A stretch of DNA of 64,000 nt from Deltaproteobacteria bacterium (GCA_015233135.1 JADFYH010000001.1:27930-91929); one strand, 5' to 3'. Shown: positions 454-39,500, numbered from the stretch's first letter. The notes: a model not told the origin generated them from the sequence alone. A program made the numbers and translations.

Positions 454-570
454 CAAGGTTTTGAAATTGTTCCAGATTGAGGCGGGAGTCCATTCACCCG
501 GAAGGAGGCGTAGCAGACGCTACGTTGACTGACGGGGGAATGGCTCCCAACGAAGAGCTGGGACAATTAC
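454..570. repeat. Structured ~120 nt repeat element, copy 1 (family A)
   Basis: Near-identical to 5522-5636. Internal hairpin CGTAGC-AGAC-GCTACG and long-range pairing GGGAGTCCATTC / GAATGGCTCCC. Confidence 0.6.
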
Positions 571-611
571 GAAAGCTTGCTGGATTCGGCTACTGCCGAA
601 TCTAGGATTAG

Positions 612-1340
612 TTATTTGGGTGGAGTGCTGGTTGCCGCAAGGGCTTCATTCACTTTTTGAAGAAACATCTCCACCCGTGGACGTCCGGGATCATTCAGAT
701 TGGAAAATTTCATAAACTGATCCCAAGTCTCTTTGGCGCCCTTCCAATCTTGATTCTGAAACTGCACAATCCCCTTAAAGAGCAGGGCTTCTGGAAATTT
801 TGGATTAGATTTCAGGGCGGCATCGAATTCTTGGAGGGCTTTTTCTTTTTCCTGCATGGCGGAATCAGACATGCCCATATGCGTGAGGGCCTCGGAATTT
901 TTGGGATCGATTTGCAGGGCCTGTTCAGCCAGGTTAAAAACCATTTCGTAATCCTGGTTCTGTAAGGCCAGATGCCCCAGACGATTGAGGGCAGCGATAT
1001 CTTTTGGATTTTTATCAATGCGTTTTTTGAGGGCTTCCATCTCTTTTTCGTCTACTTTTCCAATAGAGGCCTTGGTGGATCCGCCAGGCCCAGACCCAGA
1101 CATAGGCTTTTTCATCATGCCTTCATCCCCTTCACGCGGACGAACTCCACCCACCAGACTCACAGCCACTCCAGCAACGAAGGCTGCAAGAAAAAGCACG
1201 AGGGCGGTCCGAGATAAAAAGCGCGATTTCTGGGTATTCCCCTGCGCCTTTTCTTTTCGTTCCAAAATGGCGGCAAAAATAGCAGCCATCAGCAAGGCCA
1301 AGGCACAGATAAAACCGACTAATGTTCCTGAAAGCGTCAT
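612..1340 (-). CDS. ccmI: Cytochrome c biogenesis factor CcmI/CycH-like (N-terminal TM + TPR repeats)
   Basis: N-terminal hydrophobic helix and C-terminal TPR repeats. Last gene of the ccm operon, 4-nt overlap with ccmH. Confidence 0.55.
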   Translation of the reverse strand: MTLSGTLVGFICALALLMAAIFAAILERKEKAQGNTQKSRFLSRTALVLFLAAFVAGVAVSLVGGVRPREGDEGMMKKPMSGSGPGGSTKASIGKVDEKEMEALKKRIDKNPKDIAALNRLGHLALQNQDYEMVFNLAEQALQIDPKNSEALTHMGMSDSAMQEKEKALQEFDAALKSNPKFPEALLFKGIVQFQNQDWKGAKETWDQFMKFSNLNDPGRPRVEMFLQKVNEALAATSTPPK

Positions 1341-1720
1341 ATAGAATTTTCTCTCCGTCTACGCAACTGGATCACAATCACAGCCCCTCCCCCAAGCAAT
1401 ACCAGAACGGGCAAAACCCAGATCGTCAGATTCATTCCCTGGGCCTTGGGTTTGAGCAAGATCCATTCACCGTAGCGCTCTTCAAAATATTTGGTAATTT
1501 CTTCATCACTTTTCCCCGCAGCCACCTGTTGCCTGATCACATCCATCATCTCATTGGCTAGGGTGGAGGGGGATTCCGAAACGGGAACTCCTCGACAGAC
1601 CGGACAACGAATTTGAGAACCCAGGCTTTTGATGCGCTCATTAGGATCGGTGGAGGGCTTGGCACAGGCAACGACAAGACCAAAAACGACCATCATTATG
1701 AGCTTCCAGAAAGATTTCAT
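1337..1720 (-). CDS. ccmH: Cytochrome c-type biogenesis protein CcmH/NrfF
   Basis: Signal/TM segment, QIRCPVCRG (LRCxxC-type) motif, C-terminal TM; operon context. Confidence 0.85.
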   Translation of the reverse strand: MKSFWKLIMMVVFGLVVACAKPSTDPNERIKSLGSQIRCPVCRGVPVSESPSTLANEMMDVIRQQVAAGKSDEEITKYFEERYGEWILLKPKAQGMNLTIWVLPVLVLLGGGAVIVIQLRRRRENSI

Positions 1721-2250
1721 GGTGTTCCCCCTGCGTTTTTGGAAAACAGCTGATCGAGCTGGCCCATGATAATTTCTGAGCTGAGTATCCCCGCGTGCTT
1801 GTAGCGAACCCTGCCTTGAGCATCTATAAAGAAAGTCTCGGGAACCCCTGAAACACCGTAATCAATCGCTGTTTTAAGTCCTGGATCCAGAAGAATAGGA
1901 ACACCTGGCCCATATTGGGTTATGAATTTCTTCGCATTCTCTGGGGTATCTTCATAAAGGATCGAATAAAAAGCTACCCCTTGAGGAGAGAGACGCTCAT
2001 AGGCCTGCTTCAAAAGATTATATTCCGCGGCGCAGGGGCCACACCAGGTCGACCAAAAATTAAGAATCAGGGGTTTGCCCCGGGCCATCTCCAAAGAAAT
2101 TTTTTTCCCATCTAAGCTGGTCAACTCAAAGGCCGACGCCTTTTTTTCCAAAATGACAGATGGCAAGTCGCGAGGATCTCGCTGGAGACTGAAATAAAGC
2201 AGGGCAATGGTGGGAACAAAAATAGCCAAAAAAATGAGGAGTTTTTTCAT
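1717..2250 (-). CDS. ccmG: Thiol:disulfide interchange protein CcmG/DsbE (thioredoxin fold)
   Basis: WSTWCGPC active site. Start moved to MKKLLIFLAIF (rc ATG at 2248-2250), 5 nt after the ccmF stop. Confidence 0.85.
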   Translation of the reverse strand: MKKLLIFLAIFVPTIALLYFSLQRDPRDLPSVILEKKASAFELTSLDGKKISLEMARGKPLILNFWSTWCGPCAAEYNLLKQAYERLSPQGVAFYSILYEDTPENAKKFITQYGPGVPILLDPGLKTAIDYGVSGVPETFFIDAQGRVRYKHAGILSSEIIMGQLDQLFSKNAGGTP

Positions 2251-2255
2251 AAAAT

Positions 2256-4214
2256 CTACTCTTTCTTTTTCCGACCCAGGGCCAAGGCCATAAAGCCTCC
2301 CGTCATCACCACGATACCCCCTATCCAAATCCATACCACCGCAGGAGTCAGGATGGCGTGGAGGGTAATCTTGGAGCCATTTTTTTCGAAACTCAAAAGA
2401 GTAAGATAGAGATCTTCCACCCCAGTAGAACGCACAGCGGGGCTACCAATGGGCTCATCTCTACCCGAATAGTAGTTCGACTGAGGAAAAAGCGAGCCCA
2501 AGGACTTGCCTTTGCTCGTAACGTCCACATCGGCCTTTACTTCATAACGCCTAGGGGTGTCTTCGCCGAAAATCTCTCGGAAGGTCAGGCTATAATCCCC
2601 AATGCTCGCCGACTGTCCCTTCTCGAGAATAATCATTCGGTCTTGCGCGTAGCTGCTGGAAATCGCCACCGCCACAATAATCATCAAGGCCCCAAAGTGT
2701 GCAACAAAGCCGCCATAACGGCGCGGGTTATCGGGAAAAAGCCTGAAGAATTCTGCAAGGCAAGAACTTTTTCTGTTCTGGGCCCGCAGCCTGGCCGTCT
2801 GAATCATTTCAATACACATCACAAAAAATGCAAAACTCGCCAGCGTGATCATTCCAACGACAAGGGGATGAGTTTTCCCCCACACGAAGCAAAGAGCCAG
2901 CGGAAGCAGAGCTAGGAGGGCCGGCCATTGGGCGGCCTTTACAAAGGCCTTGGCCTCTGTTTTTCTCCACGGCGTAATGAGCCCTATCCCCATCAGCAGG
3001 AGCATCATCCCCACAATGGGAATCGTCATTTGATTAAAATAAGGCTGACCAATCGAGATTCTTTTGCCTTGAACGGCTTCCACCACCAGCGGGTAGATGG
3101 TTCCTAAAAACACAACAAAGCAGAAGCTGACAAAAAGTAGATTGTTGAAGAGAAAAAGCACTTCGAGACTGAAGATATTTTCCACGCGTCCGGGATTACG
3201 AAATTTCGGTGCCTGCCACAAAAGGAGAGACAACGAGGTCGCCAGGATAACTGTCATGAAAATTAAAAAGTAGGGACCTACATGCGATTCGGTAAAAGAA
3301 TGGACACTGTCCAAGACTCCACTTCGGGTAAGAAAGGTTCCAAGCAGGGTGAGAAGAAAGGTGAGCACCGCAAGAATAAGATTCCAGACCGGCAACATCT
3401 TTCGTTTTTCCTGCACAATCATCGAGTGCACCAGCGCCGTTCCTGCAAGCCAGGGCATAAAACTCGCATTTTCTACGGGATCCCAGGCCCAGTAACCTCC
3501 CCAACCCAACACAGCGTAGGACCACCAGCCCCCCAAAACAATGGCCATCGAGAGAAAAGACCAGGCAAACAAGGCCCAGCGACGAGTCATTTCTATCCAC
3601 TGACCCGGTAGGTCTTGCTCGATCATCGCCGCAATGGCAAAGGCGAAGGGAATGGTAAAGCCGATATACCCCATATAAAGGAAAGGCGGATGGATGGACA
3701 TCAACCAGTGATTTTGCAGCAAGGGATTGGGGCCAGGTCCATTTTGTGGAACCGGGGAAACAGCAATAAAAGGATTGGAAGGAAGGGCCAGCAAAACAAA
3801 AAAGAAGAGCTCCACAAAAAGCAGCGTGATGCCAACCCAACACATTATTTTTTGCTCGCGCTCACGATAAAAGTAGATGCAAACCGCCGAATACGCCGAC
3901 AAGATCCATCCCCAAAAGAGAATGGAACCTGCCAGCGAACTCCAGAGAGAAATGGCGCTAATCCAACGCGGGGTCTCCAGACTTCCGACCTGCGCAACGT
4001 AGCTGACGCTGAAATCGTCGTTGAGCAAGGCATGCACCATCGCCAGATTGGCAAGGGTCATGAGAACAAAATTGGCGTAAACCGACGCCCGGGCGTAAGC
4101 CAAGGCCGTGTCATTTTCCAGTTTGCGTCCCAAAAAATAGAGCAGCATGCCGAAAACGCAGAAACCAATCGCCAGGGCAATGGAAATATTTCCAATGTAG
4201 ACAATGTAGTTCAT
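2256..4214 (-). CDS. ccmF: Cytochrome c heme lyase subunit CcmF
   Basis: 652 aa polytopic membrane protein with WGGYWAWDPVEN (WWD domain). Confidence 0.9.
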   Translation of the reverse strand: MNYIVYIGNISIALAIGFCVFGMLLYFLGRKLENDTALAYARASVYANFVLMTLANLAMVHALLNDDFSVSYVAQVGSLETPRWISAISLWSSLAGSILFWGWILSAYSAVCIYFYREREQKIMCWVGITLLFVELFFFVLLALPSNPFIAVSPVPQNGPGPNPLLQNHWLMSIHPPFLYMGYIGFTIPFAFAIAAMIEQDLPGQWIEMTRRWALFAWSFLSMAIVLGGWWSYAVLGWGGYWAWDPVENASFMPWLAGTALVHSMIVQEKRKMLPVWNLILAVLTFLLTLLGTFLTRSGVLDSVHSFTESHVGPYFLIFMTVILATSLSLLLWQAPKFRNPGRVENIFSLEVLFLFNNLLFVSFCFVVFLGTIYPLVVEAVQGKRISIGQPYFNQMTIPIVGMMLLLMGIGLITPWRKTEAKAFVKAAQWPALLALLPLALCFVWGKTHPLVVGMITLASFAFFVMCIEMIQTARLRAQNRKSSCLAEFFRLFPDNPRRYGGFVAHFGALMIIVAVAISSSYAQDRMIILEKGQSASIGDYSLTFREIFGEDTPRRYEVKADVDVTSKGKSLGSLFPQSNYYSGRDEPIGSPAVRSTGVEDLYLTLLSFEKNGSKITLHAILTPAVVWIWIGGIVVMTGGFMALALGRKKKE

Positions 4215-4672
4215 TTTGTATTTCCCTCAAGACCTTTCTCTTTTTTAAGTGAGCGATAGATCTCCTGGGGAATCATTCCTTCTTTGGGAGGACGATACTC
4301 ATTGCCGTGTTTGACCATCAGACGTTCTGCATTGAAGTGCCCATCCGCCTGCATGGAACCCTCCACCACCACCCCCATGCCTTCATGAAACATTTGCGGC
4401 GGGGTCTTGCTGCTGGTCACCCGTACTGAATTTTTATCATCTTTTACCGAAAAATTGAGGATATTGCCTTCCTGTTTTACCGAACCCTCCAGCACCACTC
4501 CTCCCAGGCGCACAGGGTTTCCAACGGCTGCCTGCCCCTTAGCCAGAACTTCGGTAGGCGTCACAAAATAAACCATATTTTGCTCCAGCCCTCCCCACAT
4601 GATATAGGCAATGGCCCCTGCGATGATGGCCACCGCCAGAAGACTAAAAATCTGTCGTCGTGAAAATTTCAT
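4211..4672 (-). CDS. ccmE: Heme chaperone CcmE
   Basis: MKFSRRQIFSLLAVAII... single TM plus OB-fold region ending HGNEYRPPK, as expected for CcmE. Start set to the internal Met (the listed ORF has a 53-aa spurious extension). Confidence 0.8.
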   Translation of the reverse strand: MKFSRRQIFSLLAVAIIAGAIAYIMWGGLEQNMVYFVTPTEVLAKGQAAVGNPVRLGGVVLEGSVKQEGNILNFSVKDDKNSVRVTSSKTPPQMFHEGMGVVVEGSMQADGHFNAERLMVKHGNEYRPPKEGMIPQEIYRSLKKEKGLEGNTK

Positions 4673-4793
4673 AGGGACGTCGCCTCGTTCTTCTTCACAG
4701 CTCTCCAGCGTATCCAGAGAGTTAAGCCGTAAAGACCGAAAGCAACCCAGGGCGCCGCATAGGCCGCTCGAATGTATTCCCAACCACCTTGAA

Positions 4794-5468
4794 TCATAGA
4801 AGCTCCTTCTTTCTTTCGGGAGGTAGCGCAAGCCTCTCCTCTAAAAGCGCCTCTCTCTTAGCGAGTCTCAGACGGAAAAACAAGAGGGCTAAACACATGG
4901 CCAAAAATGCAAAGGCAGAGAGCCGGAGAGAAACTACCATAGAAGGGGCCATCGTGTTTGGACTGGATTGAACCTGATGAAGCGAACGCCACCATTTCAC
5001 CGACAGGTAAACTAGGGGGACATTGAGAAAAATGAGGAAACCCACACTGGCCGCCACCTTGGCCCGGCGTTCTGGATCTGAAATGAGTTGTCTTAAAACC
5101 AGATAGCCCGAGTACATCACAAAAAGTAATGCCGTGGTCGTCAGTCGTGGGTCCCAGGTCCACCAAACTCCCCAGGTCGGTCTCCCCCAAAGGGAACCCA
5201 GAAGCAGGGCCAGGCCATTCATAAGCAAACCGATTTCGGCCGCGCAATAAGCAAAACGGTCCCATTTTTCTTTTTTGCGGATCAGATAAGCCACTGATCC
5301 TACGAAGCTAAGGGTAAAAAATAATAAGGCCATCCAGGCTGCAGGGACATGGACGAAAAGAATACGATAGACGTCGCCCATCATCCCATCCGCCGGAGCG
5401 ATAAACAATCCCCGATACTCAGCAAAACCCAGGAAGGCGACCACAAAAAGGGCAATAAGGATGTTCAT
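4794..5468 (-). CDS. ccmC: Heme exporter protein CcmC
   Basis: WGVWWTWDPRL tryptophan-rich motif in a polytopic membrane protein; start set at MNILIALF. Confidence 0.85.
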   Translation of the reverse strand: MNILIALFVVAFLGFAEYRGLFIAPADGMMGDVYRILFVHVPAAWMALLFFTLSFVGSVAYLIRKKEKWDRFAYCAAEIGLLMNGLALLLGSLWGRPTWGVWWTWDPRLTTTALLFVMYSGYLVLRQLISDPERRAKVAASVGFLIFLNVPLVYLSVKWWRSLHQVQSSPNTMAPSMVVSLRLSAFAFLAMCLALLFFRLRLAKREALLEERLALPPERKKELL

Positions 5469-5520
5469 GCGAAGACTCCCTAAACCTAGAAAAACAGGTT
5501 CAAATGCATTTTTCCCAGGG

Positions 5521-5646
5521 CAAGGGACTGAAATTGTTCCAGATTGAGGCGGAAGTCCATTCACCCGAAAGGAGACGTAGCCCAAGCTACGTTGACTGAC
5601 GGGGGAATGGCTCCCAACGAAAAGCTGGGGCAATTGCAGTCCCTTG
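5521..5646. repeat. Structured ~120 nt repeat element, copy 2 (family A), between ccmB and ccmC
   Basis: About 90% identical to 454-570. Closing stem AAGGGACTG...CAGTCCCTT. Inner hairpin loop changed (AGAC to CCAA) with the stem preserved. Confidence 0.6.
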
Positions 5647-5649
5647 TTG

Positions 5650-6324
5650 CTAAACTCGATCAAATAAGGTTTCGGCGAAAAGTGTAGATCCCAGAAAAAA
5701 TATGGTGTCAAATAAAATCAAAAGTTTAAGCCAGGCACGCTGTTGCCCAAAGAGATCATGGGCTAAAGATAAACTCGTCGCATTCACGGCGCACAAAAGA
5801 ACCGGAACCAGCATGGGAAAAAGCAGCAATGGCAAAAGCATCTGTGCCTCCCGAAAACTCGCGGTAAGCCCCGCGTAAAGTGTGCCGATACTTGCAATTC
5901 CCACACTGCCCAAGAAGAGGCAAAGGCCCAGCGAAAATGAAAGGTTTTGATCAAACAAAACAGCCATCAAGGGAAGCATCACGAGCTGGAGACAAAGAGT
6001 ATAGCTGAGATTCGTGAGAAATTTCCCCATGTATAGGGCACGAGGGTCTGTTCCCAAAAGAAGCAGACCTTCCCACTGCCCCTCTTCGGTTTCCTGGCGA
6101 AACGAGTGCGAAAGCGACAAAATGGAGGTAAAGAAAATCGAAAGCCAGAAAAGCCCCGGGGCCATTCGGCGCATGAGGTCTGGATCGACGCTTAAGGCGA
6201 AACTGAATAAAAGCAGCAACAAGACACCAAAGAGAATAATAGAAAGCAGGTTGTGCCCCTGTCGAAGTTCGGTCTTTAAGTCTTTTCGAAAAATGGCGCC
6301 TACCTGTTGTAAAAAAAGGCTCAT
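5650..6324 (-). CDS. ccmB: Heme exporter permease CcmB
   Basis: 224 aa, six hydrophobic segments; position between ccmA and ccmC. Confidence 0.8.
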   Translation of the reverse strand: MSLFLQQVGAIFRKDLKTELRQGHNLLSIILFGVLLLLLFSFALSVDPDLMRRMAPGLFWLSIFFTSILSLSHSFRQETEEGQWEGLLLLGTDPRALYMGKFLTNLSYTLCLQLVMLPLMAVLFDQNLSFSLGLCLFLGSVGIASIGTLYAGLTASFREAQMLLPLLLFPMLVPVLLCAVNATSLSLAHDLFGQQRAWLKLLILFDTIFFLGSTLFAETLFDRV

Positions 6325-7004
6325 ACAGGCACCCCGTCATAGCTGATTGTTCCGTCTGAAATCACCAACAATCGATGTGCATGCTGCTTCGCATGACGAG
6401 GGTCATGGCTCGAGAGGAGAATGGTCTTCCCCTGCTTTTGCCAATCCTGAATCAGGCCATCCAAGATTTGTCGGCCTTCATCGTCCAGGGTGGGGTGGGG
6501 CTCATCCAAAAGGTAGAGATCGGTTTTAGATTGTTGCAGCAGGAGTCTTGCGAGCACCACGCGTTTTTTATTTCCTTCGGACAATTGGCTGATACGACGG
6601 TGTTCGTAAGGCTGAATTTTCAATTTTTCCAACAACTTTTGAATTTCCATATCCACTGTAGAGGAAGGAATTCCCAAAAGGGTGGCCACCAGTCTTAAAT
6701 TTTCGCGAACGGTCAGGATATCGTAGAGTTGTTTTTCGTGACCCAAAAAACGAATTCGAGGTCGGATCTGAGCACGGTCCTCCTGCGCATCCAGACCCAA
6801 CACCTTGATGCTCCCTGTCGAATGCGAGAGCAAGGTCGCAATGAGTTTGATAAAAGTGGATTTACCGGACCCGTTTTTACCAAAAAGGGCAACGGTCTCA
6901 CCTTGAGGAATGCTCACATTGAGGCGACTTAAAACCCAACTCCGGCCATAGCGCTTTCCAGCCTCCAGCATCTCGATGGCATTCGGCTTTGCAGAAGACA
7001 TCAA
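6321..7004 (-). CDS. ccmA: Heme exporter ATP-binding protein CcmA
   Basis: Walker A GKNGSGKST, ABC signature LSEGNKKR, Walker B LYLLDEP. Confidence 0.85.
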   Translation of the reverse strand: MMSSAKPNAIEMLEAGKRYGRSWVLSRLNVSIPQGETVALFGKNGSGKSTFIKLIATLLSHSTGSIKVLGLDAQEDRAQIRPRIRFLGHEKQLYDILTVRENLRLVATLLGIPSSTVDMEIQKLLEKLKIQPYEHRRISQLSEGNKKRVVLARLLLQQSKTDLYLLDEPHPTLDDEGRQILDGLIQDWQKQGKTILLSSHDPRHAKQHAHRLLVISDGTISYDGVPV

Positions 7005-8254: not shown

Positions 8255-9288
8255 TCAAAAAAGTAATAGAATTGGGGCCTTGTATTCAGTTCTTCCTTCA
8301 AAACATAAACTCGCTTATGCTTCAAAATCTGAGACACTTCACTGTTCGGATCACGCAAATTTCCAAACTTCCGCGCCCCGGTTGGGCAGGCCTCAAGACA
8401 GGCCGGGTATTTTCCATTACGCGTTCTATGCAAGCAGAAAGTACATTTCTCCACCACGCCCTTCATCCGGATACGATTACTCAAATAGGATTGATTCGGA
8501 TTAATTTGATCGGCAGGAATACTCGGCTTGGTGAAGTTGAAGTGGCGGGCTTCGTAAGGACAAGCTGCCATACAGTAACGACAACCAATGCACCAATTGT
8601 AGTCAACCACCACGATTCCATCTGCTTCCTTCCAGGTAGCCTCCACCGGACAGGCCCTTACGCAAGGTGGATTACGACAATGCTGACATTGAACAGGGAG
8701 ATAAAACTTATCTTTCCGGGGAACCTCGGGAGGGTTGTAGTAACGGTCTCCTTCTACCAAATCAAAACTACCCGCCTCCATTTCTAAAACCGTGATGTAC
8801 TGGATCGCTGGATCCCGTGACTGATTGTTCTCCTTTACACAGGCCTCGACACATTTTCGATTTCCATTGCATCGGGTCAGACTTAGAAAATACGCAAATT
8901 CAACCTCTGGAATCGGAGGAGGATCCGTGATGGTCACATCCACCCCATAGGCAGCCTTCGTTTCATGCTCGATCCGTTTAAAAATTGCTTCCTTGTCCTT
9001 CGGGGTCAGCTCTTTGTAATGCTTCTGAAAAAACTCTGCGAAGGTAAAGGCCTCGGCCGGTTTTGAGCCTGCCAAAACTGCCGCTCCAGCTGCTGCGCCA
9101 GCTCCCTGGATAAAGGATCGTCGGGAAAACATTTTTCCAAAAAACCGATCTGTCAAAGCCTGAATTCTCTTCGTCGCTCTCTTCGGATTTGCGTTTTCAG
9201 AACTTTTCTCAGCGCTTGAGAAATTCTTAAAAAAACGCCCCATCCAGGCACGGAGTTTTGATCGTTCGGAATCCATCGGAGCACTCAT
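8251..9288 (-). CDS. Tat-exported 4Fe-4S ferredoxin-type subunit (NrfC/PsrB/HybA-like)
   Basis: Twin-arginine motif SRRSFIQGAGAAAGA; four Cys clusters CxxCxxCxxxCP (e.g. CQHCRNPPCVRACP, CIGCRYCMAACP). Confidence 0.8.
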   Translation of the reverse strand: MSAPMDSERSKLRAWMGRFFKNFSSAEKSSENANPKRATKRIQALTDRFFGKMFSRRSFIQGAGAAAGAAVLAGSKPAEAFTFAEFFQKHYKELTPKDKEAIFKRIEHETKAAYGVDVTITDPPPIPEVEFAYFLSLTRCNGNRKCVEACVKENNQSRDPAIQYITVLEMEAGSFDLVEGDRYYNPPEVPRKDKFYLPVQCQHCRNPPCVRACPVEATWKEADGIVVVDYNWCIGCRYCMAACPYEARHFNFTKPSIPADQINPNQSYLSNRIRMKGVVEKCTFCLHRTRNGKYPACLEACPTGARKFGNLRDPNSEVSQILKHKRVYVLKEELNTRPQFYYFFD

Positions 9289-9992
9289 CGAACTTCTCCT
9301 TCTTTTTGTTTCTGATCATGGAGCATCCAGGCAGGTTTCGGAGGTGGAGGCAGAGGCTTCATCGCTTCAACGTTGTAGGGACCATGGGGGTTATGACACT
9401 GGGTACAAAGATCAATCTTGCCTGCCCCATTCCACAGCCCTGTGCGGTGACCATGCATGTGAGCCTTCCAGTCATCCAGCTGAATGCCGTGACATTGTCC
9501 GCATATTCTGTAGGATTCGTTGAAGCTAACCAATTCACCCGAGTAAAGCCTGAGCTGATTGTATTGCCCTGGGTTATGGCAATTATGACACCAGTAATTT
9601 GGATCTTCCCGTACCCTTTGTTTCGGATGAATGGATGTGATGTTGAGATGCTCCTTCGTCAGCTGCCTTTTTTCCGTGTTGAAGTCTGTAGGAGCAGAAT
9701 GACACTCGGAACAAGGATACATCTCTATCGAGGGAGTCCTCTTAACTACCTCGTCGAGGTCCGAAATCTTCAGCTCTGTGAGAGCCAATTCTGAGAGCTG
9801 TAATTCCGAGAGTTTTGGTCCTGAGGGCTGTGATTCTGCGGGCTTTGATTCTGGGACCTGTGATGCCGGAGCAGGAGGAGCTGACTTTTTATTCACCGAC
9901 TTAGCCCCCCAGCTTTTCGACAGCGGACTAAAAATAAGAACTGAAACAAGCAGCACCCGAAAGAGTTTTCGATGACGACTCAACATGGACAT
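9285..9992 (-). CDS. Periplasmic tetraheme cytochrome c
   Basis: Signal peptide; four CxxCH motifs (CSECH, CHNCH, CGQCH, CTQCH); low-complexity LSELQLSELALTEL linker encoded by a degenerate tandem DNA repeat at about 9775-9870. Confidence 0.8.
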   Translation of the reverse strand: MSMLSRHRKLFRVLLVSVLIFSPLSKSWGAKSVNKKSAPPAPASQVPESKPAESQPSGPKLSELQLSELALTELKISDLDEVVKRTPSIEMYPCSECHSAPTDFNTEKRQLTKEHLNITSIHPKQRVREDPNYWCHNCHNPGQYNQLRLYSGELVSFNESYRICGQCHGIQLDDWKAHMHGHRTGLWNGAGKIDLCTQCHNPHGPYNVEAMKPLPPPPKPAWMLHDQKQKEGEVR

Positions 9993-12114: not shown

Positions 12115-13314
12115 CTATTTCCTCATCGACTCAATCAAAATCCTCGCCACTTCAGGCCGTGAAAACTCAGGCGGTGGCAATTCCCCTTTGGAGAGTAGCT
12201 CTCGCACCTTGGTTCCCGAAAGCGCCACATGATTTTCTTTGTCATGAGGACAAGTCTTGGTCGAGGCCATGCCTTCGCATTTCTTGCAGTAGAAAGTATG
12301 GTCAAAAAACAGGGGAGTAATTGCCAATTCTTCTTTGTTAAAATTCTCAAAAATGAAATGCGCGTCAAAAGTGCCGTAGTAATTTCCCACACCGGCATGA
12401 TCGCGACCGACGATGAAATGCGAGCAGCCATAATTTTGACGGATTAAGGCATGGAAGATTGCCTCGCGAGGCCCCGCATAGCGCATCGCTGCGGGATTAA
12501 CGGCAAGTTGAGTACGGTTGGCAGGATAATAATTTTCAATGAGTTTTTCGTAGCATTTCATCCGCACCTCGGCCGGAATGTCGTCGCTCTTGGTGTCCCC
12601 CACGAGAGGATGGATGAGGAGTCCATCCACAATCTCCAAGGCACATTTGGTGAGATATTCGTGGGCGCGATGGATGGGATTACGCGTTTGAAAACCCACC
12701 ACGCGCTTCCATTTCTTTTCTGCAAATAAAGCGCGAAGTTGTGCGGGATCCAAACGGTATTGTAAAAAATGATCGTATTGAACTCGGTTGAGAACAGAGA
12801 CTTTCCCCGCCAAATACACTTCGCCTTGAGCATAAACCGCGGCAACACCCGGATGGGCGCCCTCTTCAGTTTTATAAACCTTTAAGGCCTCGTTTTTTTT
12901 ATTGGGTTCAAATTTTTCTTGGAGATGAAGAATAGCAAGAATTTCTCCCTCTGCCGAAAAAGCCCCCTCTCCCTTGAGGGGAGAGGGTTGGGGTGAGGGT
13001 GAAAACAACGCAATATCCTTCCCAATCTCATATTTTGCCGAATCTTCTTTTTTCACCGCCAGGGTAATAGGAATGGTCCACGCCAAACCATTCAAGAGCC
13101 GCATCTTTTCCACGACATTCTCATATTCCTTTTGGCCCATGAAGCCTTCCAGAGGAGAAAGCGCCCCACAGGCAATCATATCCAGATCACTCCTTTCGCG
13201 GGAATTGAGGACGATTTTGGGAAGTGCAGAAACTTGAGTGAGGGCTTTTTCTCTTTCGCTTCCAGTCAGGATACGAGAAATTAATTTTCCACCGTGTGGG
13301 GCTATCGCTGGCAT
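12115..13314 (-). CDS. sat: Sulfate adenylyltransferase (ATP sulfurylase)
   Basis: VGFQTRNPIHRAHE (QTRN and HxxH motifs) and GRDHAGVG motif; carries an in-frame repeat insertion (SPSPQPSPLKGEGAFSAEGE). Confidence 0.9.
   Translation of the reverse strand: MPAIAPHGGKLISRILTGSEREKALTQVSALPKIVLNSRERSDLDMIACGALSPLEGFMGQKEYENVVEKMRLLNGLAWTIPITLAVKKEDSAKYEIGKDIALFSPSPQPSPLKGEGAFSAEGEILAILHLQEKFEPNKKNEALKVYKTEEGAHPGVAAVYAQGEVYLAGKVSVLNRVQYDHFLQYRLDPAQLRALFAEKKWKRVVGFQTRNPIHRAHEYLTKCALEIVDGLLIHPLVGDTKSDDIPAEVRMKCYEKLIENYYPANRTQLAVNPAAMRYAGPREAIFHALIRQNYGCSHFIVGRDHAGVGNYYGTFDAHFIFENFNKEELAITPLFFDHTFYCKKCEGMASTKTCPHDKENHVALSGTKVRELLSKGELPPPEFSRPEVARILIESMRK
12962..13003. repeat. GC-rich palindromic repeat unit (family B) in-frame inside sat
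   Basis: ccccctctcccttgaggggagagggttggggtgagggtg; the same unit recurs at 22916, 31516, 35078, 36457 and as arms of the 16011, 18631 and 27084 elements. Confidence 0.7.
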
Positions 13315-15988: not shown

Positions 15989-16010
15989 AGATATAGATAG
16001 CTTCTTTACT

Positions 16011-16108
16011 TCCCCCTCTTAAGCTAAGAGGGGGTTAGGGGGCGTTATGACCAATTGAATGCGATTGAACCATAACCCCTCCTACCTCCCCTTAGCTTAA
16101 GGGGAGGA
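16011..16108. repeat. Palindromic GC-rich miniature element (family B, full two-armed copy)
   Basis: ccccctcttaagctaagaggggg ttagggggcgttatgacc ... ggtcataacccctcc ... ccccttagcttaaggggagg; intergenic between the JAMM gene and the cysteine synthase gene. Confidence 0.7.
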
Positions 16109-17370: not shown

Positions 17371-18606
17371 TTATTTCTTCATCTGTCCCACCACTGCATC
17401 AAAATCGGCCAGCTTGGCATTAATCACGGTAGGGGCACCTACAAAATCGGCCACCGCTTCCTGGGTCTTCAAACCATTTCCAGTCACACACACCACTACC
17501 GATTCGTCTTTGGGAATTTTGCCTTGCTCAATCAATTTCTTGGCGGCCCCCAGGGTAACACCGCCCGCAGTCTCAGTAAAAATCCCAGTGGTTTCTGCTA
17601 GCAGTTTGATGGCTTCCACAATTTCGGGATCACTCACATCTTCGGCCCAGCCCCCCGTTTCTTTCATTGAACCCATGGCGTAAAACCCATCGGCAGGGTT
17701 ACCAATGGCCAGAGACTTCGCAATGGTGTTGGGTTTCACGGGTTTGAACAATTCCCAATCATTTTTGAGTGCGGTCGAAATGGGTGAACAACCCGTGGCC
17801 TGCCCCCCAAACACCTTACAGTTTGGCGCTTCAATCAAGCCCATCTTATGAAACTCTTTCATGGCCTTGTGGATTTTGGTGAGCAGAGAACCCGAGGCCA
17901 TCGGCACCACCACATTTTGGGGGGCCTTCCAACCCAATTGTTCCATGGTTTCGTAAAACAAACTCTTGGAACCTTCGGCATAAAAAGGACGGATATTAAT
18001 ATTCACAAAGGCCCATTTGTATTTCGCGGCAATCTCGCTGCACAGACGATTCACTTCATCGTAGGTGCCGCGGATACCGACCACATTTCCGCCAAACACC
18101 AGGGTTCCCAAAATCTTGCCAGCTTCCAGATCGTGGGGAATAAACACGTAGCTTTTAAGCCCTGCCCCGGCGGCATTGGCGGCGACCGAATTGGCGAGAT
18201 TCCCCGTGGAAGCGCAGGCAACGGTTTCAAATCCAAATTCCTTGGCCTTGGACAAAGCCACCGAAACGACGCGATCTTTGAAAGAAAGCGTAGGATAAGA
18301 AACCGCGTCATTTTTTATATAAAGTTCTTTCACACCCAATATCTTAGCCAGGCGATCGGCTTTTACGAGAGGTGTAAAACCGACATCACGACCCACCGTG
18401 GGCTCGCCATCAATCGGAAGCAGCTCGCGATAACGCCACATGTTTTTGGCGCGACTTTCAATTTTTTTGCGAGAGATATCTTTTTTGATTTCCTCGTAGT
18501 TGTAGTCCACTTCGAGCGGACCAAAACAGTATTCACACACATGCGTGGGAGTGACGGGATAAAGCTGGCCGCATTCGCGACATTTTAGGCCTTTGACGTA
18601 GGACAT
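17371..18606 (-). CDS. Threonine synthase-like PLP enzyme with N-terminal zinc ribbon
   Basis: CRECG...CEYC ribbon; SFKDR PLP-lysine motif; ThrC fold-type II; first gene after a SAM riboswitch. Confidence 0.8.
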   Translation of the reverse strand: MSYVKGLKCRECGQLYPVTPTHVCEYCFGPLEVDYNYEEIKKDISRKKIESRAKNMWRYRELLPIDGEPTVGRDVGFTPLVKADRLAKILGVKELYIKNDAVSYPTLSFKDRVVSVALSKAKEFGFETVACASTGNLANSVAANAAGAGLKSYVFIPHDLEAGKILGTLVFGGNVVGIRGTYDEVNRLCSEIAAKYKWAFVNINIRPFYAEGSKSLFYETMEQLGWKAPQNVVVPMASGSLLTKIHKAMKEFHKMGLIEAPNCKVFGGQATGCSPISTALKNDWELFKPVKPNTIAKSLAIGNPADGFYAMGSMKETGGWAEDVSDPEIVEAIKLLAETTGIFTETAGGVTLGAAKKLIEQGKIPKDESVVVCVTGNGLKTQEAVADFVGAPTVINAKLADFDAVVGQMKK

Positions 18607-18630
18607 TATTAAACACCTTCAGTTCATACT

Positions 18631-18732
18631 CCCCCTCTTAGGCTAAGAGGGGGTCAGGGGGCGTTATGGCAATTGGATTCAAAGTGACCATAAACCCTCC
18701 TAACCCCCTTCTTAGCTTCAAGAGAAGGGAAA
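18631..18732. repeat. Palindromic GC-rich miniature element (family B, full copy) in the 5' leader of the thrC-like gene
   Basis: ccccctcttaggctaagagggggtcagggggcgttatggc ... gaccataaaccctcctaaccccc ttcttagcttcaagagaaggg. Confidence 0.7.
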
Positions 18733-18754: not shown

Positions 18755-18932
18755 ACGAAAAAAAACCCCTTCTTGGGTGATCTGTTCCAGAATCATTCAA
18801 GAAGAGGTTTTATACCGCTCTCTCCTTATCTACCCCGATTCTTCGGGATGGAATTAGCACCCGTCGAATTTTCAAATTCCGGGTTGCTGCAGGATCATCG
18901 GGCCATTTCCCTCACCTGCTCTGGATAAGACG
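18755..18932 (-). ncRNA. SAM-I (S-box) riboswitch with intrinsic terminator
   Basis: Minus-strand RNA: UCUUAUCCAGAGCAGGUGAGGGAAAUGGCCCGAUGAUCCUGCAGCAACC...GGUGCUAAUUCC...GAUAAGGAGA (P1 UCUUAUC/GAUAAGA), matching the S-box consensus. Followed by CCUCUUCUUG...CAAGAAGGGG hairpin plus U8 at 18753-18805. Confidence 0.8.
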
Positions 18933-27013: not shown

Positions 27014-27250
27014 TTCCCTCTCCCTTGAGGCATAGGTATCTACACATCTCAGCAAACTATTGGTTTTATTGACTCTGCTGTTCCTCCCCTTAAGCTAAGG
27101 GGAGGTTAGGAGGGGTTATGGAAGATCTTGCTGAACTCAAAAATACTGTAATTTGCACGGTTTTCCATAACTCCCCCAACCCCCTCTTAGCTTAAGAGGG
27201 GGCAATACCAAAAGATGTGTAGATACCTATGCCCTTGAGGGGAGGGGAAA
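27014..27250. repeat. About 240-bp near-perfect palindromic miniature element (family B core with long terminal inverted repeats)
   Basis: ccctctcccttgaggcataggtatctacacatct (27014-27050) mirrored by agatgtgtagatacctatgcccttgaggggagggg (27213-27250); core two-hairpin unit at 27084-27203. Confidence 0.75.
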
Positions 27251-27281: not shown

Positions 27282-27953
27282 ATGAGGCGTCAAATTTATA
27301 TGAGAAAAATTATTTACCAAATTTCGATTTTAGTCTTTTTTTCTTCTTCTCTCTACGCGAAATCCAATCTGCAGGCTGGTTTCCAAGGTCAAGCTCCCCT
27401 CAATCAAAACATTTACTTAGTCGTCAAAGGTGTTTTTGCCAGCCAGTCTCAGGCCGCGGAAACCAAAAAATTTATTCAACAGCTTCTTGTGCGCACCCCG
27501 GCGGATGGGATCATCGCATCGGACGACCTCAAGGATTTTCCTAAAGGCAAGTGGGTGGTCGCTTCGGCTTTTGATGATGAAAAAAAGGCAAAGTGGTGGC
27601 TGAGTTTTTCGGACCGCAATGCGAAACTTCCCCGCCCTTACGTGAAGAAAACCCAGATTTCACAAAATGCCCAGGCCCTTCCTTATTTCCCGGAAGCCGA
27701 GCGTCTGGGAGAAAAACGCTTTGCCTCCGAGCAAGAGATCTTGAATCAGATCGAGGCCTTTTCAGATGTGAGGAGTCTTAAAAAAGAGGCCAAAATCAAG
27801 TACCAGTTTACCAAATATCCTCGCAGTGAAGACATGCGCTATGAAGTGGAAATCCTGAAAGAGAAAAACGGAAGATTTATTTCCTACGATTTTGTAAAAG
27901 TGGATGCGGAAAATCCAAAACGCTATAGTCGATTTTTAGAAAAATTAAAATAG
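27282..27953 (+). CDS. Hypothetical secreted protein
   Basis: Signal peptide MRKIIYQISILVFFSSSLYA; no recognised domain. Confidence 0.35.
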   Translation: MRRQIYMRKIIYQISILVFFSSSLYAKSNLQAGFQGQAPLNQNIYLVVKGVFASQSQAAETKKFIQQLLVRTPADGIIASDDLKDFPKGKWVVASAFDDEKKAKWWLSFSDRNAKLPRPYVKKTQISQNAQALPYFPEAERLGEKRFASEQEILNQIEAFSDVRSLKKEAKIKYQFTKYPRSEDMRYEVEILKEKNGRFISYDFVKVDAENPKRYSRFLEKLK

Positions 27954-34164: not shown

Positions 34165-35646
34165 ATGAAAACAAAACAAAAGATTTACACCCTCACCCTA
34201 CCCTCTTCCCTCTCCCAACTCCGCTCTACCCTCCTCCCTTGGTACCAGCAGCACAAGCGCAGTCTACCTTGGCGCCAGACGAAAGACCCATACAAAATCT
34301 GGCTTTCCGAAATCATGTTACAGCAAACGCAAGTCACCACCGTGATTGATTACTATCAGCGTTTTCTAAAAAAATTCCCTACCTTGGAGAGTTTGGCTAA
34401 GGCTAAAGAACAAGACGTGCTCACCCTGTGGTCAGGGCTGGGCTACTACAGCCGAGCCAAAAATCTGCAAAAAGCCGCCCAAAAAATTGTTCAAAACTAT
34501 CATGGAATTTTTCCAAACGATCCGGCTGAAATGCTCAAACTCCCGGGCATAGGCCTCTACACTCGAGGTGCCATTGCCAGTATTGCCTTTGATTTGCCGG
34601 TGGCTTTGGTGGATGGAAATGTGATTCGCGTGTATTCCAGATTACTCGCACTTGCGGGATCGCCTTCGGACGCAAAATTTGTGAAGGAAATTTGGAGAGT
34701 GGCGGAGGGGGTGATTGAGAAGTTAGACGTGAGACGTGAGACGAAAGAAGTAAAAAGTAAAACTGAAAAAAACCCAGGTCTTTCGTCTCACCTCTCACGT
34801 CTCACGTCTTCCCCTCCCCATTCCCCTGGCGACTTCAACCAGGCCCTCATGGAACTGGGCGCCACGATTTGCAGCCCAAAAAATCCCAGCTGTCTGATTT
34901 GCCCACTTCAAAAATGTTGTGAAGGAAAATTACTGGGCCCTGAAAATTTCCCGGAGAAGAAAAAGAGGACGAAAACGAAGGAAATGACGCGCGTAGTGTG
35001 GGTGATGCTGGAGCATGAGAAAGGGTGCAGATGCATTTTACCTCACCCTGACCCTTTCCTCAAGAAGGAAGCAGAATCCCCTCTCCCTCGAGGGGAGAGG
35101 GCCGGGGTGAGGGTGATAAATCAACTGGACCCCCACTGCAAAATCCAACTGATTCAAGACCCCAATACCCGTTGGCACAAGGGCTTGTGGCAGTTGCCTG
35201 GGGAATGGGAGGAGGGAAGAGGAAAAAGGAAAGAGGGAAGAGGGGAGAAGGGAGAAGGGAGACGTGAAACGAAAGACGTAAAAAGTGAAATGGGAAAAAG
35301 CTCCCATCTTCCGTCTCACCTCTTACGTCTCACACCTCACGTCTTACCCCTCCCCTCCTTCACCCACCACATAACCCATCATAAAATAAAGGTTTTGCCG
35401 TATTTGGTAAGAAAGTTAGAAGTAAGTCGTGAAACGAAAGACGTAAGACGGAAGACGAAAGAAGTGAGACGTGAAACGGGAAAAACATTTCCTCTTCCGT
35501 CTCACATCTCACATCTCACATCTCACGCATCTCCCCTCACGTCCCTCCCCCTCCCCCAGGCCCTAAAACTCCCCCTCCCCGCCCCGGACAAGAAAATTTT
35601 AAATTTCTTGCGAGAATTTATGGATAAAGGCAGGGCATCTAAATGA
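34165..35646 (+). CDS. mutY: Adenine DNA glycosylase MutY with multiple in-frame repeat insertions
   Basis: LPWRQTKDPYKIWLSEIMLQQTQV; HhH-GPD region; 4Fe-4S cluster CSPKNPSCLICPLQKCC; C-terminal NUDIX-like region split by three inserted segments (VRRETKEVKS..., GRRETKDVKS..., SRETKDVRRKTKEVRRETGK...). Confidence 0.8.
   Translation: MKTKQKIYTLTLPSSLSQLRSTLLPWYQQHKRSLPWRQTKDPYKIWLSEIMLQQTQVTTVIDYYQRFLKKFPTLESLAKAKEQDVLTLWSGLGYYSRAKNLQKAAQKIVQNYHGIFPNDPAEMLKLPGIGLYTRGAIASIAFDLPVALVDGNVIRVYSRLLALAGSPSDAKFVKEIWRVAEGVIEKLDVRRETKEVKSKTEKNPGLSSHLSRLTSSPPHSPGDFNQALMELGATICSPKNPSCLICPLQKCCEGKLLGPENFPEKKKRTKTKEMTRVVWVMLEHEKGCRCILPHPDPFLKKEAESPLPRGERAGVRVINQLDPHCKIQLIQDPNTRWHKGLWQLPGEWEEGRGKRKEGRGEKGEGRRETKDVKSEMGKSSHLPSHLLRLTPHVLPLPSFTHHITHHKIKVLPYLVRKLEVSRETKDVRRKTKEVRRETGKTFPLPSHISHLTSHASPLTSLPLPQALKLPLPAPDKKILNFLREFMDKGRASK
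34725..34812. repeat. ACGTGAGACG-type palindromic element (family C) in-frame in mutY
   Basis: agacgtgagacgtgagacgaaagaag ... tctttcgtctcacctctcacgtctcacgtct. Confidence 0.7.
35260..35349. repeat. Family C palindromic element, second copy in mutY
   Basis: gagacgtgaaacgaaagacgtaaaaagtgaaatgggaaaaagctcccatcttccgtctcacctcttacgtctcac. Confidence 0.7.
35407..35530. repeat. Family C palindromic element, third copy in mutY (with ctcacat x3)
   Basis: aagtcgtgaaacgaaagacgtaagacggaagacgaaagaagtgagacgtgaaacgg ... ccgtctcacatctcacatctcacatctcacgc. Confidence 0.7.
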
Positions 35647-36456: not shown

Positions 36457-36497
36457 TCCCCTCTCCTTACGAAGGAGAGGGTTAGGGTGAGGTCTTA
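36457..36497. repeat. Family B short unit, intergenic
   Basis: cccctctccttacgaaggagagggttagggtgaggtc. Confidence 0.6.
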
Positions 36498-36558
36498 ATT
36501 GGATGCAATTTGATCTCAATTGAGACCTTCTTCCAACTCAAATACCTGGGGAGGTATT

Positions 36559-39500
36559 ATGTTTCGTTCTTCCAAAAAAACTTTCTTCCTACTCTTACTC
36601 TTCACTCTTCACTCTTCGCTCTTTTCTCCCCTCGCCCAGGCAAGACAGAACTGGTTTGACTCCCTGAAAGATTTTTTCAAACAACAAATTGGTTCTGTGG
36701 ATTTCAATATAAAACCTAACTCGACACAAAATCTCAATCCTGTCCAAAACACCTCTTTCGATCCCAGAATACGATTAAATCCCAACGTTATTTTCGATCC
36801 AAGCCTGTTGAGAGATGGCCCTACTCCCATGGAACCCTTTCGTTTGAATCCCGCTACGGCTTATGATCCTGTCCACCAGCGGTATTTGGTGGTTTGGGAA
36901 CAGAAACCTGCCCTGGATAGCAGTGAAATTCATGCCCAGTATTACAGTCGGGAAGGAGTGGCTCAGGGCACGGACCTGCTCGTCAGTACTGCCCGACCTA
37001 CTCAGGGTTGTTTGTACTCAGGCTTTCATAGCGATCGCCCTAATCTAACCCCGCTCAGCGAAGACAATTGCAAAGAGGCACGCAATCCTTCTGTGGCTTA
37101 TAGCAATGGGAAATTTTTAATCCTCTGGGAACTGGGCGGAACCGCGCCTTATGCCTATAACGCTCACTATATAACTGAAATGCGCGATGGACATTCTGTA
37201 CTCGTCCGTACCGACGAAGCCCCCACGGTGAATGAGGAAGGAAAGGTATTTTCTAACATCATCGCAAAAATGGTAAATGCCGACGACAGCCTAAGCCCTG
37301 CAAACCCCATGGGGCATGATAATAATTGGGATGAAGGCATTTTAATCTCCCAGTTCAACGTCTCGGTCAATCAGGATTATGTCTATAACGCAACCACTCG
37401 CCATTGGGATGCCTTTAACCCTGCAACAGCTACCGATATGGATGTGCAGGCCTGGTGGGTCTCCAAAAATCCAAAGGTTGCCGCTTTAACTCATGCGGGA
37501 GCCAGCGATCCTACGGGCTTTGTGGTGACTTGGGATTCCAACCGGGAATTCACCGATTGCCGCGAACCTATACGCCGCGCTTCCACGGGAGTTTTTGCCC
37601 GTTATATCGATGAAAATTTCCTGGGGCAAATTCCCAGAGGCAGCGCTAATCCCAACAAACCGGTCATCCCCATCAGTCGCGACGTTTCGGGAGATCCCAC
37701 AACCACACCCGATCACCGTTGCAGCGGAGATGTGCAAGAAGCCAAAAAACCCAAATTGGCCGTGGCAGCTTCGAATGATGTCGTGCTGACTTACGAAAGC
37801 ACAACGGCCAGTTTCCCCAACGCAACCGGCACGCCGACGCGCACACCCACTCGCATTGGTCTCAAAAAATTAAGTTTCTCCAATATACAAGGGATGAGCC
37901 ACGAGAATAGCAGCAGCGATTTTGGAATTATCTTTCCTTCGACAGGCACAGAAAATCAGCAAAATCCGGATCTCCTTACTTATCGCAATCAAGTCGTGTT
38001 GGCCTATGATGACGCAAGCTCCATCTATCTTCAAAAATTTAATACCAGTCCTGCTTTATCGGCCACTTGCCCCATGGGGATGCCGACTTGCAGCCCTGTT
38101 CGTCTGGGGATGGAAGGCGATGCCGCGAAAACCAAACCTGTACTCGGAAGCAATTTAAATGGATCGGCCTGCCCCATGGCCCCTGCAGGGATGGAGACGG
38201 CCTGCAGACCCGACACCCTGGGCCTGAGTTATCTGGAAGCGGACAATGTGAAATTAGCCTTCCTGGATGCGGACAGCAATTTCAGCCCCGCTCGTCCCCC
38301 CGTCACTTTATCTTCCGGATCTACGACTAATGTGCCTGGGGCACTCGCCAGCAACGGCGTGGATTTCTTTGGCGCCTGGACGGGTGTTGCCGCTCATCGC
38401 ACCAATATCTTCACGAGCGCCAGCCCCACCTTGGCAGCTCTCGTTGCTCCCACTTTAGTCACACCCAATGTGGATGCCAATTTACCCAGCACCACGGTAG
38501 ATTTTTCCTGGTCGCATCCCGGTGGAACTGGGATTCAATATACCTTACAACTGGCCCCCATGGGATCGACCTTGGCAGATGTTGCCAGTTGTCAAAATGT
38601 CTCCACGACGATGTGTCGAGTCTCTACAGGTCTAAGCTTCGGCCAAAGCTATCAATGGCGTGTCAAAGCAGTAGACAGTCGATATAGAGGACGTGAAATT
38701 TTTTCGACGGAAACCAGAACCTTCAGACTCTCTGTGGATGCCTTACCCGCACCCGTACTAATTTCTCCAGCAGCCGATGCCTCCCTCACCTCGAACAGCG
38801 TTGATTTCTCATGGTCGCATCCCGGCGGAGCTGGCATTCAATACACCTTGCAACTGGGACAGGGGGGCATGCCCGCAACCGATGTCCCTACTTGCCAAAA
38901 CATCACTGCCCTCACTTGCCGTGTGAGTGGACTGACTTTTGGACAGAGCTACCAATGGCGAGTGACCGCTCGCGACAGCACCATGCCTTTGCGCACTTCC
39001 GTTTCTGCCGAAACCCGAAGCTTTAATTTAGCGGTAGAAGTTCTGGCCCCCCCTGTTTTAATCAGCCCTGTCACTACACCCGTGGGCAGCCCTCTCACTT
39101 CCAACGCCATGGACTTCAGTTGGACTCATCCCGGTGGCGCAGGAATTCAATACACCTTGCAGCTTTCTCCCACGGGAATGGATCTGGTGGATGTCCCCAC
39201 TTGTCAAAACATCACTGCCCTCACCTGTCACGTCAGCGGGCTGATGTGGGGACAGACCTATCAATGGCGAGTCACCGCTCGAGACAGCACCATGCCCTTG
39301 CGCACTTCCGTTTCTGCGGAGATGAGAACCTTTACCCTCATCGGTATTTTAGCGGCCCCTATGCTGGTCTCCCCTGATAACGCCGCAACTCTCAGCACAA
39401 ACTCCGTCACCCTGCAATGGGCCGCCATGACACCCAGACCCGGCCTGGTCTACGATGTGTTTGTAGATGACATCACAACAAGCGGCAGCAGCACCCCCTT

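Follow-up and report, generated by a model that had tools for sequence, protein, structure and literature searches.

A 64,000-nucleotide (nt) stretch of DNA from a Deltaproteobacteria bacterium (GCA_015233135.1 JADFYH010000001.1:27930-91929; hereafter the window, with positions counted from its first letter) carries two copies of a 126-nt rod-like hairpin, one inside the ccm operon between ccmB and ccmC and the other beyond the 3′ end of the same operon. Comparison with public genomes and metagenomes establishes, at the level of sequence, a structured family with covarying stems that spans several phyla (at least three, with members in ribosomal RNA (rRNA) spacers in addition) and is absent from Rfam. 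We propose, with a confidence that we would call even and no higher, that this family is a dispersed, probably mobile, multi-copy structured repeat.

Two copies of one hairpin in the window

A repeat search of the window returned a direct repeat of 90% identity at 451-568 and 5518-5635. The full unit is 126 nt long and occupies positions 454-579 (copy 1) and 5521-5646 (copy 2) of the + strand. Alignment of the copies needs no gaps and shows 17 differences, which bears out the claim of a first-pass annotation, made from the sequence alone, that two structured loci of about 90% identity are present. The covariance model described below matched copy 1 with 108 bits and copy 2 with 104 bits, and found no third copy in the 64 kb; its third match, at 27312-27419 (11.8 bits), was rejected, having no fold and sitting in the start of a gene. 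The flanks of copy 1 are no more similar to those of copy 2 than shuffled sequence is (p ~0.27 on each side), so that the repeat consists of the hairpin alone. Short open reading frames (ORFs) run over the copies on the + strand (477-605 and 5544-5687); these differ from one another solely by amino-acid-changing substitutions and are not retained in homologues of other genomes.

Folded as RNA, the + strand gave energies of -73.7 kcal/mol for copy 1 and -72.7 kcal/mol for copy 2, with z-scores of -10.3 and -7.8, respectively, and none of 200 dinucleotide shuffles folded equally well. In the fold used to compare the copies, the minimum free energy is -69.7 kcal/mol with 48 base pairs (bp) for copy 1 and -69.4 kcal/mol for copy 2, and the foot of the hairpin is CAAGG...CCUUG. 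The outer stem of copy 2, CAAGGGACUG / CAGUCCCUUG, is perfect and is stacked on an 11-bp stem, AAUUGUUCCAG / CUGGGGCAAUU, and the helix GGGAGUCCAUUC / GAAUGGCUCCC is found in the fold of both copies; the closing stem of copy 2 and the long-range helix noticed at the first reading were thus both confirmed. The basal internal loop has the same 5′ half, AUUGAGGCGG, in copy 1 (476-485) and copy 2 (5543-5552), while its 3′ half reads CCAACGAAGAGC at 547-558 and CCAACGAAAAGC at 5614-5625, and the loop pair U478-G555 of copy 1 becomes U-A in copy 2. Folding and family comparison define an apical module at 501-532 of copy 1, GA-AG-GA-(GGCGUAGC AGAC GCUACGUU)-GA-CU-GA, in which an 8-bp hairpin (507-526, loop at 515-518) has GA/GA mismatch pairs on either side; by alignment of the copies, the corresponding module of copy 2 lies at 5568-5599 with its loop, CCAA, at 5582-5585. 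This is the hairpin that had been described as CGUAGC-N4-GCUACG with a variable loop on a constant stem, and the description is correct: between GGCGUAGC-AGAC-GCUACGUU in copy 1 and GACGUAGC-CCAA-GCUACGUU in copy 2 the loop has changed at three of its four positions and the stem is intact, one of its pairs going from G-U to A-U.

The differences between the copies preserve the fold at 14 of 15 sites, counting pairs and unpaired bases. Three compensatory double changes fall in the outer stem (459/574, UA to GC; 460/573, UA to AU; 461/572, UA to CG). The remaining differences comprise four wobble-compatible single changes and five at unpaired positions, along with one repair (G.G to G-C) and one break (G-C to A.C). 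The earlier argument that stem-preserving variation signals selection on structure is well supported by these numbers. A separate 11-bp hairpin, CTGGATTCGGCTACTGCCGAATCTAG, lies at 580-605 (+), in the space that separates copy 1 from the stop codon of the last ccm gene, and is called terminator-like by a terminator scan.

Members of the family in other genomes

Public genomes and metagenomes were scanned with a pattern made of the two halves of the basal loop and a free gap between them. Sixteen DNA stretches were returned, and at seven loci the same rod was seen, its stems beginning exactly at the loop halves (at one of these, L012, as two tandem matches). The other nine pattern matches (L001-L003, L007, L009, L013, L015 and L016) were set aside for the absence of such a hairpin; they appear to be ordinary and probably coding sequence. 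L004 also resembled a chance match by eye, but the covariance model and its stems show that it is a genuine member. A covariance model built from five sequences regained all of the rod loci and found two further copies at L008. The members come from Cocleimonas (Gammaproteobacteria; L004), Phaeodactylibacter (Bacteroidota; L005), a member of the Bacteroidales (L006), a metagenome-assembled genome (MAG) labelled 'Deltaproteobacteria' whose neighbouring proteins have their relatives in Thermodesulfobacteriota (L008), and metagenome contigs (L010, L011, L012 with its two tandem copies, and L014). Viral contigs searched with the loop pattern at two gap ranges gave no match, nor did plasmids and phages searched with copy 1 by blastn, and a full-text literature search for the loop strings returned unrelated PCR primers only.

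In a 12-member alignment, which was fitted to the covariance model, paired cells make up 95.7% of the total, and 12 of the 17 pairs vary on both sides. The observed values were not reached in any of 500 shuffles, and sliding the partners by one to three columns reduced pairing to 40-64%. Invariance of the basal loop in L004-L014 is largely a matter of construction, because the search pattern required the loop sequences. The two L008 copies that were found by the model alone carry AUCAAGGCGG / CACAACGCAGAG, in which U-G has become C-G and the closing G-C has become A-U; the 3′ variant CACAACGCAGAG of copy L008B changes jointly with its 5′ partner. An apical hairpin of 6-8 bp bracketed by GA/GA was present in 8 of 11 instances, a feature that the pattern did not impose.

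The fold is strand-specific. In each of the 11 instances, the strand that carries AUUGAGGCGG folds better than its complement, by 8-21 kcal/mol, and summed over these instances there are 51 G-U pairs on the AUUGAGGCGG strand versus 20 on the complement. This bias suggests that a single-stranded form of the element, probably RNA, is what selection has acted upon. Relatives and strand bias together support a multi-copy structured family under selection for the fold of one strand.

The element is missing from the ccm operons of relatives

The ccm genes of the window are all on the - strand, in the order ccmA (6321-7004), ccmB (5650-6324), ccmC (4794-5467, with its ATG at 5467), ccmD, ccmE, ccmF (2256-4214), ccmG, ccmH and a last, tetratricopeptide-repeat-containing CcmH/CcmI-like gene (612-1340). 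These positions come from the ORF map; on orthologues of ccmB, ccmC and the last gene the Pfam families PF03379, PF01578 and PF23914, respectively, are recorded. Copy 2 sits between ccmB and ccmC, separated from the ccmB stop codon by 3 nt and from the ccmC ATG by 53 nt, and copy 1 lies beyond the 3′ end of the operon, 32 nt past the stop codon of the 612-1340 gene. Since the neighbouring genes are all on the - strand and the better-folding strand is the + strand, the two copies run antisense to the operon. A hairpin of -48 to -62 kcal/mol can still form from their complement, which is what the ccm messenger RNA (mRNA) carries. A simple promoter scan found no sigma-70 promoter upstream of copy 1 or copy 2. 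The hairpin is followed by a U tract on neither strand, so that it does not qualify as an intrinsic terminator or attenuator, and the terminator scan flagged just an internal sub-hairpin in addition to the separate hairpin at 580-605. The ORF map shows no transposase, TnpB or IscB beside either copy.

We compared the operon with those of six relatives (L017-L022, 100 kb), and the covariance model matched nothing in their ccm regions. The ccmB-ccmC gap is only 1-6 nt in L018/L019, L020 and L021/L022, whose CcmF proteins are 73%, 68% and 65% identical to that of the window, respectively. In the closest relative, L017 (CcmF identity 81%), the gap is 138 nt and holds a pair of unrelated G/C-rich palindromes, which also fill its ccmE-ccmF gap and are of the same family as repeats elsewhere in the window. 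The short gaps in five relatives and the different repeat in the sixth indicate that the window copies are recent, lineage-specific insertions and not a conserved ccm control element. That the same junction holds another repeat in a close relative points to a permissive insertion site, and the antisense orientation argues that the copies were not designed as ccm regulators. In L020, two opposite-strand genes without a recorded Pfam match are inserted between ccmE and ccmF (8495-9908), another sign that the ccm junctions of this lineage tolerate insertions. The G/C-rich REP-like palindromes of the window, for example CCCCTCTCCCTTGAGGGGAGAGGGTTGGGGTGAGGG and TCCCCCTCTTAAGCTAAGAGGGGGTTAGGGGG, were located by the repeat search in several copies and in both orientations (12964-13005, 35078-35119 and 36458-36499; 16007-16089, 18630-18708 and 27173-27207).

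Genomic settings of the family members

Outside the ccm operon, the element occurs in unrelated settings. At L010, L011 and L012 it lies in the 16S-23S spacer of rRNA operons, on the sense strand, and the rRNA-spacer copies are a few to ~25 nt upstream of tRNA-Ile(GAT) or tRNA-Ala(UGC). The L010 and L011 spacers are homologous, and their element copies differ by compensatory changes. The L012 spacer contains two identical copies in tandem upstream of tRNA-Ala (2277-2506), with a period of 123 nt. Beyond the elements themselves, no likeness of the loop halves to rRNA segments was found in L010-L012. At L008/L023 an Fe-S/DUF1858/Mrp operon has three copies in its intergenic gaps within a span of 2 kb, each antisense to the genes. 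One of the L008 copies is disrupted by another small insertion: at ~1580-1700, read on the - strand, the 3′ loop of the third copy is split by an insertion of ~110 nt with the ends GCCACA...TGTGGC. Sequence similar to this insertion occurs ~250 nt away, which makes it another small repeat family in that genome. The element is absent from L025-L027, relatives of the L008 operon; the corresponding gaps of L026 are 34 and 4 nt, and those of L025 contain other hairpins.

Other copies adjoin a kinase gene pair, an enoyl-CoA hydratase gene and a NUDIX gene. Orientation relative to the neighbouring genes is mixed, with 6 of the 11 instances antisense and 5 sense (L006 is antisense to its neighbours; L005 and L004 are sense). 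Several copies are close to a stop codon, at a distance of 3 nt for copy 2 and 12 nt for L005, and L008A, L008B and L006 overlap one. The clustering, the tandem duplicate, the tolerance of disruption and the mixed orientation amount to repeat-like behaviour.

Relationship to Flavo-1

A search of Rfam 15 in gathering mode gave no match at either copy, and no above-threshold family explains the two loci. The sole match in the whole window was a S-adenosylmethionine (SAM-I) riboswitch elsewhere (RF00162, 80.6 bits; 18823-18931, - strand), upstream of a - strand ORF at 17371-18606. With the cutoff relaxed to E<=10, Flavo-1 (RF01705) gave same-strand matches to both copies that span the full model, with 20.6 bits for copy 1 and 23.9 bits for copy 2, which is about half of the Flavo-1 gathering threshold of 42 bits. 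Flavo-1 was the only bacterial RNA family matched by both copies; the other matches at E<=10, to hairpin-like miRNA models and terminator fragments, were treated as chance. Among the other members, L008, L010 and L014 had no Flavo-1 match at E<5.

The match rests on the basal loop, where CCAGAUUGAGGCGGAAGUCC ... CCAACGAAAAGCUGG aligns with the consensus CCcGAUuGaAGcGGAAauCC ... guAgCGgAaAGCggG. Compared with the Rfam consensus, the loop of the copies, GAUUGAGGCGG ... CAACGAAGAGC, agrees at 17 of 20 nt on the 5′ side and at 10 of 15 on the 3′ side. We read the Flavo-1 seed alignment directly (Weinberg et al., 2010, supplement; PMC2864571). It has the same layout, namely a P1 stem, a 5′ strand A-UU-GNAGC-GG, a 3′ strand A(A/G)CGNA(A/U)AGC and an apical hairpin of variable length. 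The loop GAU(U/A)GNAGCGG ... A(A/G)CGNA(U/A)AGC closes this variable hairpin, and one seed member is exactly GAUUGAGGCGG. Flavo-1 is described as having several copies per genome in either orientation relative to transcription units and no assigned function (PMC9723704). The element is likewise multi-copy without a fixed gene association or orientation (two copies in the window, three at L008, and mixed orientation across the 11 instances). It differs from Flavo-1 in that G-C pairs replace the GGA/guA 3x3 loop, in having much longer outer and apical stems (105-170 nt versus ~76 nt overall) and in occurring outside Bacteroidota and Spirochaetota. Common descent of the two is plausible. Because the scores are below the Rfam threshold and other members have no Flavo-1 match, we have not filed the element as a member of Flavo-1.

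Two other candidates were rejected. The Desulfotalea-1 motif (Weinberg et al., 2010; not in Rfam), described as 'near rRNA operons', proved from its alignment to be a short, unrelated sequence. A kink-turn reading of the basal loop was discarded by inspection, the order of G and A beside the closing stem being off the kink-turn consensus.

Other features of the window

The G+C content falls sharply, from 0.44-0.51 to 0.31-0.36, over ~40000-64000. This low-GC part encodes a Wzy-type O-antigen ligase/polymerase and GT4 glycosyltransferases and is probably a surface-polysaccharide cluster or island; alternatively, it may reflect a chimeric MAG contig. Repeats of ~300 nt (D2, D3 and D7) at 38482-39334 lie inside a 1427-amino acid ORF (36520-40803) with fibronectin type III domains; they are repeated protein domains and not a nucleic-acid element.

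Discussion

The reading that we favour, at the even confidence stated above, is that of a dispersed and probably mobile repeat family. The element would spread into permissive intergenic sites, be it directly behind a stop codon, within an operon or in an rRNA spacer. The family has one strand-specific fold, which consists of a long variable outer stem, a purine-rich basal loop, a short covarying second stem and a GA/GA-bracketed apical hairpin. Its single-stranded form probably matters. RNA is the likeliest such form, because of the G-U excess and the sense-strand copies in rRNA spacers, and single-stranded DNA is the alternative. The conserved non-canonical loops may be the contact site for a conserved partner, either the copying machinery or a bound protein. 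In the ccm mRNA, a barrier or processing site between ccmAB and ccmC-I could arise incidentally from the complementary hairpin.

Several points weigh against this reading. No transposase, reverse transcriptase or HUH enzyme is linked to the element, and the insertion borders show no target-site duplication or common target motif. The case for movement is built on presence/absence and on the copy pattern; no near-identical pair of empty and filled sites was recovered. The count of copies covers 64 kb of the source genome. The invariance of the loops was imposed by the search pattern, and only the two model-found L008 copies test it, and those vary. Compensatory changes between the two copies would be expected if selection acts on each copy itself, and a dead insertion accounts for them less well than a functional RNA gene does, although the copies could instead descend from different selected source copies. 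It is because a mobilising enzyme, a duplication and a target motif are all missing, and because compensatory changes also fit small RNA (sRNA) genes, that our confidence stops where it does.

Among known repeats the element resembles the long palindromic intergenic repeats ERIC, Correia and RUP, which are like miniature inverted-repeat transposable elements. Like these, it is an imperfect palindrome of ~100-170 nt with many copies per genome, lies in either orientation in transcribed intergenic regions including operons, folds into a hairpin within the host's RNA, and differs in presence or absence between close relatives. Unlike these, it extends over several phyla and combines conserved asymmetric internal loops with a consistent G-U strand bias and with compensatory changes between copies. 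The loops, the bias and the compensatory changes together argue for selection on a single-stranded fold and not merely on terminal inverted repeats. There is also no sequence similarity, and no related full-length insertion sequence (IS) was found. No direct repeat borders copy 1, copy 2, L008A-C or L006, and no transposase was present among the sampled ORFs (the 64-kb window and loci of 8-22 kb). With REP/BIME-RAYT systems the element shares strand-specific hairpins that follow stop codons or lie within operons, occur in clusters, lack target-site duplications and may stabilise upstream mRNA. REPs, however, are 20-40 nt long, have a 5′ GTAG motif and are genus-specific, whereas the element is a 126-nt unit with the foot CAAGG...CCUUG, three to five times longer and with two internal non-canonical modules.

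The alternative that survives best, and that we consider possible if doubtful, is that the copies are independently transcribed sRNA genes on the + strand. Such RNAs might act in trans, binding or sequestering a protein through their GA-rich loops, or might pair in cis as antisense RNAs with the ccm mRNA and direct cleavage between ccmB and ccmC. An sRNA gene would account for the strand-specific fold with its G-U bias, for compensatory changes between the window copies within one genome and among the L008 copies, and for the sense orientation in highly transcribed rRNA spacers. The two conserved non-canonical modules are typical of protein-binding RNAs, and the closest relative, Flavo-1, is classed as an sRNA by Rfam. 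Of the sRNA gene family raised in the first-pass annotation, then, the structured multi-copy family stands. The gene itself fares less well. The repeat ends at the foot of the hairpin with no shared upstream sequence, neither window copy has a sigma-70 promoter, a consistent U-tract terminator is lacking, copies overlap the stop codons of convergent genes, and in one L008 copy a disruption is tolerated.

A single-stranded DNA element, in which the folded hairpin is recognised by an HUH/Y1-type enzyme without any RNA stage, as in REP/BIME-RAYT systems, IS200/IS605 ends and attC sites, is in our view rather improbable. Strand-specific hairpins with conserved unpaired bases would be expected of it, as would sites after stop codons and inside operons without target-site duplication and copy clusters in one orientation. 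DNA, too, tolerates G-T and tandem G-A mismatches better than any others. Its length of 105-170 nt nevertheless compares poorly with the 20-40 nt of REPs; there is no GTAG foot, and the ends, CAAGG / CCTTG, are not the RYYYAAC ... GTTRRRY of integron attC sites, from which the element differs further in that its flanks are a conserved ccm operon found without it in relatives. In none of the loci examined did we see a gene for RAYT, TnpA or an integrase. Orientation is inconsistent with replication: rRNA operons, which are usually co-oriented with replication, have the motif strand sense; in the window, this strand is rich in C and its GC skew is negative. A G-U excess of this size also suits RNA better.

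We regard as very improbable a dedicated cis-element of the ccm operon, that is, a processing site, attenuator or stability determinant that sets the ratio of CcmAB to CcmC-I, which the first-pass annotation had offered in the form of an operon-internal processing or attenuation element. Both copies are in or next to one operon, 5 kb apart, with no others in 64 kb, and a hairpin can still form from the complement that the mRNA carries. Changes in the stability of upstream mRNA segments are a known effect of REP- and ERIC-type hairpins. The selected strand is nonetheless antisense to the mRNA, six of six relatives lack the element in their ccm operons, and the same element recurs in the unrelated contexts listed above, from the Fe-S/DUF1858 operon to the rRNA spacers. 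The solo end of a guide-RNA transposon (TnpB/IscB omega RNA or IS110 bridge RNA), another early suggestion, would also be multi-copy, structured and ~120-130 nt long, but it can be dismissed as extremely improbable, given that the neighbours are ccm genes with no tnpB, iscB, IS110 gene or IS end adjacent, that no HEARO or other such Rfam model matches even at E<=10, that the internal loops are conserved across phyla and not programmable, and that the 5′ and 3′ ends pair in a single rod, which leaves no free guide segment.

A bolder version of the repeat reading, which we think quite unlikely, is that the element belongs to a multi-phyla RNA class outside Rfam, perhaps a Flavo-1 superfamily, whose purine-rich modules bind a conserved cellular or element-encoded protein, which is abundant by virtue of its rRNA-spacer copies and spreads via an RNA intermediate in either orientation. 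If true, it would be a bacterial analogue of retro-repeats like short interspersed nuclear elements, or else an unrecognised abundant ribonucleoprotein.

For annotation, the ccmB-ccmC gap of this genome should be read as a repeat insertion and not as a ccm regulatory RNA. More generally, the family adds a covarying, clearly built structured element to unannotated bacterial intergenic DNA; this anatomy, a distribution that is wide but patchy, and the copies in rRNA spacers bring the hairpins of the Flavo-1 type more within reach of study. It may also be tied to Flavo-1, which is among the most abundant Rfam 'sRNA' families and has had an unexplained function since 2010, and the rRNA spacers, operon-internal gaps and stop-codon-adjacent sites described here are concrete places in which hairpins of the Flavo-1 type could be tested.

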